A stretch of DNA of 23,190 nt from Escherichia coli. Lineage in GTDB: Bacteria > Pseudomonadota > Gammaproteobacteria > Enterobacterales > Enterobacteriaceae. Below are positions 2 to 4,597 of this stretch, piece after piece. Where the stretch lies: NCBI RefSeq assembly GCF_003334815.1, contig NZ_QOWO01000050.1. The stretch is one strand, 5' to 3'. The position numbers were made by a program, and so were the translations under genes. The notes beneath the pieces were generated by a model. That model had not been told where the DNA came from and searched no databases. It saw only the letters and a list, made by a program, of their open reading frames with translations. Position 1 is the first letter of the stretch, and every line of letters begins with the position of its first letter.

Positions 2-898
2 TGGCTTGCGCAGTGCGGGCTGACGGTGGAGCAACTGGCCAGACAGGTGGAGCCGGAATACACACCGGCGCGAAAAGCTCATCTTTATCACTGCGACCAC
101 CGGGGACTGCCGCTGGCGCTTATCAGCGAAGACGGCAATACGGCGTGGAGCGCGGAATATGATGAATGGGGCAACCAGCTTAATGAGGAGAACCCGCATC
201 ATGTGTATCAGCCGTACCGTCTGCCAGGGCAGCAGCATGATGAGGAATCAGGGCTGTACTATAACCGTCACCGGTACTACGATCCGTTGCAGGGGCGGTA
301 TATTACTCAGGACCCGATGGGGTTGAAAGGGGGATGGAATTTATATCAGTATCCTTTAAATCCACTACAACAAATTGACCCTATGGGATTATTGCAGACT
401 TGGGATGATGCCAGATCTGGAGCATGTACGGGGGGAGTTTGTGGTGTTCTTTCACGTATAATAGGACCAAGTAAATTTGATAGTACTGCAGATGCTGCGT
501 TAGATGCTTTGAAAGAAACGCAGAATAGATCTCTATGTAATGATATGGAATACTCTGGTATTGTCTGTAAAGATACTAATGGAAAATATTTTGCATCTAA
601 GGCAGAAACTGATAATTTAAGAAAGGAGTCATATCCTCTGAAAAGAAAATGTCCCACAGGTACAGATAGAGTTGCTGCTTATCATACTCACGGTGCAGAT
701 AGTCATGGCGATTATGTTGATGAATTTTTTTCAAGTAGCGATAAAAATCTTGTAAGAAGTAAAGATAATAATCTTGAAGCATTTTATCTCGCAACACCTG
801 ATGGACGATTTGAGGCGCTTAATAATAAAGGAGAATATATTTTTATCAGAAATAGTGTCCCGGGATTGAGTTCAGTATGCATACCGTATCATGATTAA
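2..898 (+). CDS. rhsD: Rhs-family polymorphic toxin, C-terminal ~299 codons (5'-partial; gene begins upstream of window). Conserved Rhs core end followed by a variable AT-rich C-terminal toxin domain
   Basis: Frame is open from position 2 with no stop before the track ORF at 26. Translation contains the Rhs core-terminal signature YDxxGR...[13 protein letters not shown] (PxxxxDPxGL) at about 300-390. Base composition drops sharply to AT-rich immediately after that motif, as expected for a swapped toxin tip. Gene symbol is from recalled context (rhsD-ybbC-ylbH-ybbD next to mnmH/allS). Confidence 0.85.
113..392 (+). repeat. Rhs core-terminal homology block, copy 1 (direct repeat with 1309-1588)
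   Basis: Nucleotide and protein similarity to 1309-1588 visible by eye, including a 33-nt identical block ccggtactacgatccgttgcaggggcggtatat at 271-303 and 1467-1499. Both copies end at the DPxGL motif. Confidence 0.8.
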
Positions 899-937
899 TT
901 TTAGTGCTTTTATTAGTGGGGCCTATAAGGAGATTCA

Positions 938-1306
938 ATGAAATATAGTTCAATATTTTCGATGCTTTCATTTTTTATACTATTTGCCTGTAATGAGACA
1001 GCTGTTTACGGTTCTGATGAAAACATTATTTTTATGAGGTATGTGGAAAAATTACATTTAGATAAATACTCTGTTAAAAATACGGTAAAAACTGAAACAA
1101 TGGCGATACAATTAGCTGAAATATATGTTAGGTATCGCTATGGCGAACGGATTGCAGAAGAAGAAAAACCATATTTAATTACGGAACTACCAGATAGTTG
1201 GGTTGTTGAGGGAGCAAAGTTACCTTATGAAGTTGCGGGTGGTGTATTTATTATAGAAATTAATAAGAAAAATGGATGTGTTTTGAATTTCCTACATAGT
1301 AAATAA
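938..1306 (+). CDS. ybbC: Small protein directly downstream of the Rhs toxin tip; putative cognate Rhs immunity protein with a hydrophobic N-terminus (possible signal peptide or lipoprotein)
   Basis: 122-aa ORF starting 40 nt after the rhs stop, AT-rich like the toxin tip. N-terminus [18 protein letters not shown] is signal-peptide-like with a Cys after the hydrophobic stretch. Position immediately 3' of an Rhs C-terminal tip is the canonical immunity-gene location. Confidence 0.75.
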
Positions 1307-2016
1307 TGCTGGCGCTGATGGATGCGGATGGAAACATTGCGTGGAGCGGGGAGTATGATGAGTGGGGCAACCAGCTGAATGAAGAGAACCCGCATCACCT
1401 GCACCAGCCGTACCGGCTGCCGGGGCAGCAGTATGATAAGGAGTCGGGGCTGTACTACAACCGGAACCGGTACTACGATCCGTTGCAGGGGCGGTATATC
1501 ACTCAGGACCCGATAGGGCTGGAGGGGGGATGGAGTCTGTATGCGTATCCGCTGAATCCGGTGAATGGTATTGATCCATTAGGGTTAAGTCCCGCAGATG
1601 TAGCGCTAATAAGAAGAAAAGATCAACTAAACCATCAAAGAGCATGGGATATATTATCTGATACTTATGAAGATATGAAGAGATTAAATTTAGGTGGGAC
1701 TGATCAATTTTTCCATTGTATGGCATTTTGTCGAGTGTCTAAATTAAATGACGCTGGTGTTAGCCGATCGGCGAAAGGGCTGGGTTATGAAAAAGAGATT
1801 AGAGATTACGGGTTAAATCTGTTCGGTATGTACGGCAGAAAAGTAAAGCTATCCCATTCTGAAATGATTGAAGATAATAAAAAAGACTTGGCTGTAAATG
1901 ACCATGGGTTGACATGTCCATCAACAACAGATTGCTCAGATAGATGTAGTGATTATATTAATCCAGAGCATAAAAAAACGATAAAGGCTTTACAAGATGC
2001 TGGCTATCTCAAGTAA
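1306..2016 (+). CDS. ylbH: Orphan Rhs C-terminal module: ~95 residues of Rhs core end (through DPLGL) fused to a different, AT-rich C-terminal toxin domain of unknown activity
   Basis: 236-aa ORF whose ATG overlaps the ybbC stop (TAATG). N-terminal third is homologous to the end of the upstream rhs core; the sequence after DPLGL (about 1590) is unrelated to the RhsD tip and AT-rich. No upstream Rhs repeat region is in frame, so it is a displaced tip rather than a full rhs gene. Confidence 0.8.
1309..1588 (+). repeat. Rhs core-terminal homology block, copy 2 (5' part of the orphan tip module)
   Basis: Same as copy 1. Encoded peptide [26 protein letters not shown]...[14 protein letters not shown] parallels [26 protein letters not shown]...[14 protein letters not shown] in the main rhs ORF. 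Confidence 0.8.
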
Positions 2017-3000: not shown

Positions 3001-3372
3001 TCAGTATCGTCTTTTGAGATTCTCAAGGTTATGGAGTAACCAGACAGAACGGACACCACTGTCGGAGATAAAAACCCCCTGTTTACGCAGCTCGTTGCTG
3101 GCCCGGTGCTGACCATGTGTCGGGAAAGCGACGGCGTAATCAACAACAGCCTGTTCAGTTGCCTCATCGGTACGGTTCTTAAGGTTAGGAGCGCGGCGAC
3201 TACGATTAATCTGCGCATCCACACCGCCTTCAGCGACCAGTTCGCGGTAACGATAAAACGTATCACGCGAAACGCCCATGATTTTACAGGCTTTTGATAC
3301 GTAGCTGAGTTCTTCAGCCAGATTGAGCAAACCGGCTTTGTGTTTGATGACGGGATTGGCAGTATGAAGCAT
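3001..3372 (-). pseudogene. ylbG: Truncated IS481-like transposase N-terminal (HTH) fragment; no integrase/DDE domain follows
   Basis: Minus-strand ORF with ATG at 3370-3372 preceded by AAGAGGTAA (the track's GTG at 3408 lies upstream of this). Translation MGVSRDTFYRYRELVAEGG...NRSRRAPNLKNRTDEATEQAVVDYAVAFPTHGQHRASNELRKQGVFISDSGVRSVW resembles the N-terminal HTH region of IS481/IS3-like transposases. The ORF stops after ~123 aa and downstream sequence is AT-rich without a recognisable catalytic domain. Confidence 0.55.
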
Positions 3373-3487
3373 GAGAGTTACCTCTTGTTTTGGATAAGGA
3401 TTCGACACTCATATCAAAACCGGTAACTCTCAACCTTTCAAGGCCATGTGTCAGATCAAGTCGCGACTAATACAAATACGTCCCTCA

Positions 3488-4597
<1,110 letters not shown>

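Follow-up and report, generated by a model that had tools for sequence, protein, structure and literature searches.

A JAB-fold Rhs toxin tip and its probably exported immunity-type partner YbbC form an exchangeable cassette at Escherichia coli rhsD, with a proposed periplasmic site of toxin action

The window analysed here is a 23,190-nucleotide stretch of Escherichia coli DNA (contig NZ_QOWO01000050.1 of assembly GCF_003334815.1), and this report concerns its first 1306 bases, which hold the C-terminal toxin tip of an Rhs protein and the putative immunity gene that follows it. Over bases 1-2600 the window matches many E. coli chromosomes at 100% identity, and these carry the annotations rhsD, ybbC, a partial "RHS repeat-associated core domain-containing protein" and a YbbD-related gene. 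An initial annotation, made from the sequence alone, had recognised a resident rhs tip with an adjacent immunity-type gene, ybbC, and that reading is borne out both by the RefSeq annotation of the identical DNA and by E. coli K-12 MG1655, which carries the tip and ybbC at 100% identity. We regard it as nearly certain that bases 2-1306 represent the 3' end of a K-12-type rhsD together with ybbC, and that the two products belong to the Tox-JAB-2 and Imm-NTF2-2 families, respectively. Among 5426 complete E. coli genomes, the tip and ybbC are found at 99% identity or better in 1855, and core-type sequence is found in 3696. Both the locus and the families are already known, K-12 rhsD-ybbC having been annotated and the families having been named in 2012. 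The locus itself adds little; what it offers is a correction and a lead on the site at which the toxin acts.

The first open reading frame (ORF) lies in frame 2 and, as read directly from the sequence, is open from the left edge of the window up to a stop codon at 896-898. Its first part (2-391, plus strand) covers the final 130 codons of the YD-repeat core of RhsD, the Rhs-associated core domain; it matches Pfam RHS (PF03527) with E = 2.6e-16 and is 100% identical to annotated rhsD. Two DPMGL motifs stand at the core end, 18 residues apart, and the second of them (PxxxxDPMGL) closes at base 391, which we take to be the expected autoproteolysis site. The remainder of the ORF (392-898, plus strand) is the toxin tip, a Tox-JAB-2/DUF4329 domain of the JAB/MPN+ type whose coding part, 392-895, specifies 168 residues ahead of the stop codon. 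Six of these residues are cysteines (C12, C17, C49, C59, C87 and C163 in tip numbering). A 39-nt spacer separates the tip stop from ybbC (938-1306, plus strand), which encodes a 122-residue Imm-NTF2-2 protein with an N-terminal lipoprotein-type signal. The spacer contains a Shine-Dalgarno-like AAGGAG (928-933, plus strand) about 4-5 nt upstream of the ybbC ATG, and its position supports translation from the start codon that includes the signal.

The initial annotation had found no motif in the tip that it could assign. A profile search, however, places the tip in a known family: residues 164-283 of the translated fragment match Pfam DUF4329 (PF14220) with E = 2.6e-37, spanning positions 2-114 of the 116-position model. 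DUF4329 corresponds to Tox-JAB-2, a JAB domain that has the deaminase-like fold, conserves E, H[ST]H, S and D residues, is borne on RHS proteins and has Imm-NTF2 family 2 as its immunity family (Zhang, de Souza, Anantharaman, Iyer and Aravind, 2012; PMC3482391). The tip and YbbC are members of these families, sharing the same E, H[ST]H, S and D, the RHS N-terminal context and the E. coli pairing. Structurally, nothing separates the tip from Tox-JAB-2 as described in that study; it is the functional reading that differs, a nuclease or ribonuclease (RNase) being proposed there and a periplasmic target here. An exhaustive search of 1.84 billion representative sequences with the tip, at a threshold of E ≤ 0.001, yielded 254 relatives, and in almost all of them the domain lies at the extreme C-terminus, with a median of 7 residues beyond it. 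A word-indexed homologue search with the tip returned close E. coli relatives only, searches of PDB chain sequences with the tip, YbbC and a 58-sequence tip profile gave nothing useful (the best match, at E = 1.6, was to a plastid ribosomal protein), and NCBIfam holds no model that matches the tip or YbbC.

The 12-residue segment that the initial annotation had singled out without assigning it (tip residues 97-108) provides the HxH of a JAMM zinc site, with FSSSD sixteen residues on supplying the Ser and Asp; YHTHG...SSSD is the JAMM/MPN+ metal-binding motif. In tip numbering, the predicted catalytic set is E53, H98-T-H100, S114 and D117, and the HxH...SxxD portion, which holds the metal-binding and oxyanion residues H98, H100, S114 and D117 as defined by the family alignment, is encoded by 22 codons at 680-745 on the plus strand. 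Across a 112-sequence alignment, E53 and D117 are each present in 112 sequences, S114 in 110, and H98 and H100 in 109 each; the exceptions at these positions include two reads with C-to-T damage. The full S-E-H-H-E-S-D pattern is found in 92 of the 112. When the alignment is cleaned to 58 sequences that are 23-52% identical, the invariant columns are exactly E53, H98, H100, S114 and D117. As a separate observation, two homologues of 392-895 from Logan assemblies (P0002 and P0003) differ systematically by H>Y, S>F, P>L, T>I and A>V, the catalytic His included; we attribute this pattern to reads with C-to-T conversion or damage, such as those from bisulfite libraries, and not to natural variation.

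An AlphaFold2 model of the tip built from the 58-sequence alignment has a mean predicted local distance difference test score (pLDDT) of 92.2 and a predicted template modelling score (pTM) of 0.87, and it adopts the JAB/MPN fold. The twelve best fold matches of this model are peptidases, isopeptidases or close relatives of these, and all of them rank above RadC. The model and the alignments point to a complete, apparently catalytically competent JAB/MPN+ domain with a predicted E...HxH...SxxD zinc site; whether its chemistry is that of a zinc-dependent peptidase or amidase is a question on which we consider the odds to be even. The tip is 9-20% identical in sequence to the JAMM/MPN+ zinc isopeptidases (AfJAMM, PfJAMM1, Rpn11, BRCC36, AMSH, CSN5 and the bacterial Cap3 and BilC). 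Unlike those enzymes, in which 7 residues separate HxH from SxxD, the tip has a spacing of 13 residues, and the enterobacterial tip clade adds two N-terminal helices bearing a CxxxxC pair. The tip also differs from them in having no ubiquitin-like partner and in its proposed extracytoplasmic site of action. A nucleic-acid deaminase, which would share the deaminase-like fold, was rejected as a candidate, the tip being without the [HC]xE...PCxxC zinc motif.

YbbC matches Pfam Imm-NTF2-2 (PF15631) over the full model with E = 6.8e-26. Its AlphaFold2 model (pLDDT 81.5) consists of an N-terminal signal helix, a second helix, and a long helix lying on a four-stranded curved sheet, and this arrangement is the alpha+beta cone of the NTF2-like fold. 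Among the best structural neighbours of the model (m5f60dc5ab2b5) are protease-inhibitor modules, namely domains of the cystatin fold, of PepSY and of the fungalysin/vibriolysin propeptides, and the model also resembles the NTF2-like periplasmic domains of VirB8/DotI. At its N-terminus, YbbC has a basic n-region (K2), a hydrophobic core (Kyte-Doolittle value of 2.59 over 10 residues) and a lipobox, ILFA-C18, which matches the PS51257-type PROSITE rule at Cys18 and is followed by Asn at position +2. YbbC is thus a predicted lipoprotein, and by the usual +2 rule Asn at this position implies sorting to the outer membrane. Its homologues mostly carry signal peptidase I-type signals, not lipoboxes. 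Beyond E. coli, members of Imm-NTF2-2 are found in Salmonella, Pseudocitrobacter, Escherichia albertii and high-GC metagenomic sequences. Tips that are 52, 48 and 40% identical to the one in the window are followed by YbbC homologues that are 48, 34 and 38% identical, respectively; toxin and immunity co-diverge. Position, family pairing and co-divergence all support YbbC as the putative immunity protein of the tip.

The export signal is not peculiar to YbbC. The gene downstream of the toxin has a signal-like N-terminus in seven of eight loci that encode diverse DUF4329 toxins. At three of these loci the downstream gene belongs to Imm-NTF2-2 (GCA_013899055.1, locus L002; GCA_047642595.1, locus L003; and a metagenomic locus, L011). 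In E. albertii (L007), it is YbbC-like, a call made from its 38% identity, and in another metagenome (L012) it has no Pfam hit, although its product (P0206) matches a YbbC-family profile with E = 9e-25. The remaining two are a DUF6794 gene in a sequencing-run assembly (L009) and a Rahnella gene (L008) in which we noticed no similarity and which has a lipobox of its own, VLASC. Likewise, 20 of 24 full-length, diverse Imm-NTF2-2 proteins pass the hydrophobicity test for a signal; in the four that fail, the same signal has visibly been cut short by a 5'-truncated gene call.

The cysteines of the tip covary. In the 112-sequence alignment, 53 sequences have C59 together with C87 and 46 have neither; C87 occurs alone in 13 sequences and C59 alone in none. 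C12, C17, C49 and the C-terminal Cys co-occur in the enterobacterial clade only, and the E. albertii-type tip sequence is missing both C49 and the C-terminal Cys. The disulfides predicted from these patterns are C12-C17, C49-C163 and C59-C87, and three such bonds in 168 residues would fit an oxidising compartment. In the logic of type VI secretion, an immunity protein located in the periplasm points to a target in that compartment. The same logic has been applied elsewhere (PMC10469887). Because the Imm-NTF2-2 relatives and most of the downstream genes carry export signals, and because the tip has covarying cysteines, the tip should act in the periplasm, a site that we consider likely. This is the point at which the analysis goes beyond the literature: the immunity protein appears to be exported, so the toxin is probably directed at the envelope and not at RNA.

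Downstream of ybbC, whose stop codon overlaps its ATG, lies a displaced orphan rhs fragment (1306-2016, plus strand) that matches NCBIfam RHS_core / Rhs_assc_core and consists of a GC-rich core end of 94 codons joined to a different, AT-rich tip of 142 residues. The orphan tip has a weak match to Pfam serum amyloid A (E = 0.0013), and the fragment is overlapped by a small membrane-protein gene of the YbbD/PRK14710 type (1997-2257; 86 residues). The two core ends form a direct repeat of 280 bp (112-391 and 1308-1587) with 80% nucleotide identity overall and 97% at 272-311, and this repeat would be a recombination substrate for tip swapping.

The initial annotation had described an AT-rich tip and ybbC behind a GC-rich core, and the composition agrees with this description. 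The GC content is 58.0% in the core (1-326), 36.5% in the tip and 30.6% in ybbC; the corresponding values for third codon positions (GC3) are 0.59 (core codons 2-391), 0.18 and 0.21. We located the step by a maximum-likelihood single-change-point scan of 1-1306, with 500 shuffles as the null. The change point falls at base 337 (2-lnL support interval 298-341), and its log-likelihood ratio of 30.3 compares with a mean of 2.5 and a maximum of 8.4 for the shuffles. These values confirm a genuine and far from random compositional step, but it does not lie where it had been placed, directly after the DPxGL motif at about 390: it sits some 55 nt upstream of the DPMGL end at 391, directly past the first DPMGL motif. 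It falls inside the AT-rich final 22 codons of the core (327-391, plus strand; 35.4% GC), which are also where identity to the orphan copy declines. Nucleotide identity between the resident and orphan core copies drops from 0.97 at 272-311 to 0.60 at 352-391, where the resident copy uses AT-rich codons and the protein motif is kept, and homology to the orphan copy ends at DPxGL. The GC content rises again at 1307, the exact start of the orphan core fragment, to 56.7% over 1306-1587 (GC3 0.71), and is 36.6% in the orphan tip (GC3 0.28). Given the AT-rich codons there and a change point at about 337, we assign the last 18-22 core codons to the imported cassette; the recombination joint thus lies inside the conserved core end, and the final ~20 codons of the core arrived with the cassette in a version of their own. 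The notion that the AT-rich stretch is ordinary intergenic or low-complexity DNA was rejected, as both ORFs are intact, family-matched and conserved.

An alternative arrangement is found in E. coli O157:H7 strain 2159, whose ybbP-rhs-ylbG-mnmH-allS locus is without the ~1.2 kb that holds the JAB tip and ybbC. The rhs gene of this strain ends in the orphan-type tip of the window and is followed directly by the small membrane-protein gene. Its core end matches the resident K-12 copy to about position 151 and the orphan copy perfectly from about 1339-1387, which places the switch from the first to the second repeat copy at about 152-190 / 1339-1387. Such a pattern would be expected either from recombination between the direct repeats or from insertion of a cassette that carries a core end. 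In another genome, a 52%-identical tip and a 48%-identical YbbC homologue are found at a different rhs locus, beside selA/selB and a glutathione S-transferase (GST) gene. Since O157:H7 carries the orphan-type tip and lacks the JAB tip and ybbC at the same locus, cassette exchange is supported, and with it the earlier proposal, also favoured by the homologous pair at a different rhs locus and by the compositional break, that the tip and ybbC are a laterally acquired, exchangeable toxin/immunity cassette on a conserved Rhs core. The arrangement is like that of orphan or displaced Rhs tip arrays (rhs-CT/rhsI), with a resident tip and immunity gene followed by a core-end fragment bearing an older tip and a small gene, and with direct repeats that permit recombination; rhsD-ybbC is a textbook case of such an array and shows no notable difference from it. 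Arrays of rhs-CT/rhsI modules are reportedly the subject of work by Jackson and colleagues from 2009 and by Koskiniemi and colleagues from 2013-2014.

Taking these observations as a whole, we assign a probability of about 0.65 to the reading that rhsD-ybbC is an exchanged cassette encoding a periplasm-acting JAB metallohydrolase that is neutralised by exported YbbC. In the mechanism that we propose, the YD shell would enclose the tip, and aspartyl autoproteolysis after DPMGL would free it, both steps being modelled on the general biology of Rhs and Tc proteins. The tip would then be fired into neighbouring cells by a type VI system, where such a system and a PAAR/VgrG adaptor exist, and in the periplasm, as a zinc-dependent amidase or (iso)peptidase, it would hydrolyse an amide or isopeptide bond of the envelope. 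From an outer-membrane tether on the periplasmic side, YbbC would bind the tip and so block it. If the Lys-ε-amide chemistry of MPN+ enzymes is taken as a guide, candidate substrates are the peptide cross-links of peptidoglycan or the isopeptide bond between Lpp and the meso-diaminopimelate (mDAP) of peptidoglycan; these are a guess, and any particular substrate is improbable. The immunity proteins of the Tae/Tai amidases and of the Tge/Tgi and Tle/Tli pairs resemble YbbC in being small, in having Sec or lipoprotein signals and in being encoded directly downstream of the effector. Whereas the effectors of those systems travel as cargo proteins and have NlpC/P60, lysozyme-like or lipase folds, the tip is an Rhs-encapsulated JAB-fold domain, a kind of domain that is not known to have an envelope substrate. 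A wider claim, that Tox-JAB-2/DUF4329 tips including the K-12 RhsD C-terminal tip are not RNases but periplasm-acting zinc (iso)peptidases or amidases, and that lipoproteins or periplasmic proteins of the YbbC type are cystatin/PepSY-like inhibitors, is more tentative, and we place it slightly short of an even chance.

Several points weigh against a periplasm-acting metallohydrolase. The signal peptides were called by hydrophobicity and pattern rules, a heuristic and not a trained predictor, and one locus of the eight (L010), at which a giant pig-gut protein is followed by a dubious ORF, is without a signal-bearing downstream gene. The three disulfides are predicted from covariation alone, and RadC is among the structural neighbours of the tip. 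Known Rhs tips act mostly in the cytoplasm. To our knowledge, K-12 has no functional type VI system; in a K-12-type strain the toxin may never be delivered, and the cassette may serve mainly as immunity. A search of the literature found no experiment on any DUF4329 toxin. In addition, the immunity gene reported for a PAAR-Rhs-DUF4329 effector of Salmonella pathogenicity island 6 (SPI-6) is of the CdiI type and lacks a signal peptide (PMC10469887, Table 2), and the original description of Tox-JAB-2 contains an argument from missing ubiquitin-tunnel residues (PMC3482391).

The rival explanation that survives best is that the tip is a nuclease or RNase acting in the cytoplasm, that its JAB fold works in the manner of the proposed RadC nucleases, and that YbbC neutralises the toxin before export or on entry. 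This is indeed the label that DUF4329 bears in the literature (PMC3482391 and papers citing it), but the label is a prediction passed between papers, and the literature that we searched yielded no assay behind it. A cytoplasmic toxin needs cytoplasmic immunity, and YbbC and essentially all of its Imm-NTF2-2 relatives carry export signals, as do the downstream genes at seven of the eight DUF4329 loci. The covarying Cys pairs fit an oxidising compartment, and the twelve fold matches that outrank RadC are of the peptidase or isopeptidase type or near kin of these. We therefore consider a cytoplasmic nuclease unlikely.

Less probable still is that the K-12-type cassette is a relic that is no longer deployed, with RhsD unsecreted and ybbC kept as protection against kin that fire the same toxin; the biochemistry of the tip would then have no bearing on this strain. 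In its favour, K-12 RhsD seems to be without a complete PAAR domain: the N-terminus of full-length RhsD (L001, 2618-4117) holds DUF6531 and RHS repeats, and residues 3-20 alone match the end of the PAAR model, with E = 0.11. E. albertii NBRC 107761 (L007, 44-3294) offers a parallel, in that its homologous tip is frame-broken between ...FDALKK and ...MICKD and its signal-bearing Imm-NTF2-2 gene is intact, so that immunity has been kept there after the toxin decayed. The lack of a promoter-like signal is also compatible with a relic; a promoter and terminator scan of 1-2700 gave 11 sites, compared with 9.2 expected from shuffles, and nothing rose above chance. However, the tip ORF in the window is intact with all of its catalytic residues present, the tip is at least 99% identical over 1892 records with no sign of decay, and many lineages other than K-12, which may have type VI systems, carry the same cassette. 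A relic would, moreover, be a matter of how one strain uses the cassette and is compatible with the mechanism.

About one in three complete E. coli genomes encodes the toxin, which has been reported to be widespread in Salmonella SPI-6 and is routinely labelled "RNase". If the periplasmic reading is true, these tips would be the first JAB-fold toxins of the cell envelope and, unusually for an Rhs-encapsulated effector, would have their target outside the cytoplasm. They would also constitute a new enzymatic class among envelope-targeting interbacterial toxins and would give the JAB fold an extracytoplasmic role in bacteria.

Two minor observations concern related loci and the surroundings of rhsD. 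A related-locus search with the enterobacterial sub-alignment returned five loci, three of which are apparently mis-binned E. coli-type contigs. At L004, L005 and L006, fragments of E. coli-type rhs tips (identities of 100% and 52%) lie on short contigs of metagenome-assembled genomes labelled Alistipes, Lachnospiraceae and Flavobacterium psychrophilum, and these contigs are probably mis-binned enterobacterial DNA. Farther along the window, an insertion sequence (IS)-type helix-turn-helix ORF (3001-3408, minus strand), annotated as a ylbG pseudogene in identical genomes, adjoins mnmH, which encodes tRNA 2-selenouridine synthase (3488-4582, minus strand). This ORF marks the right-hand border of the rhsD island, ahead of the allantoin genes.

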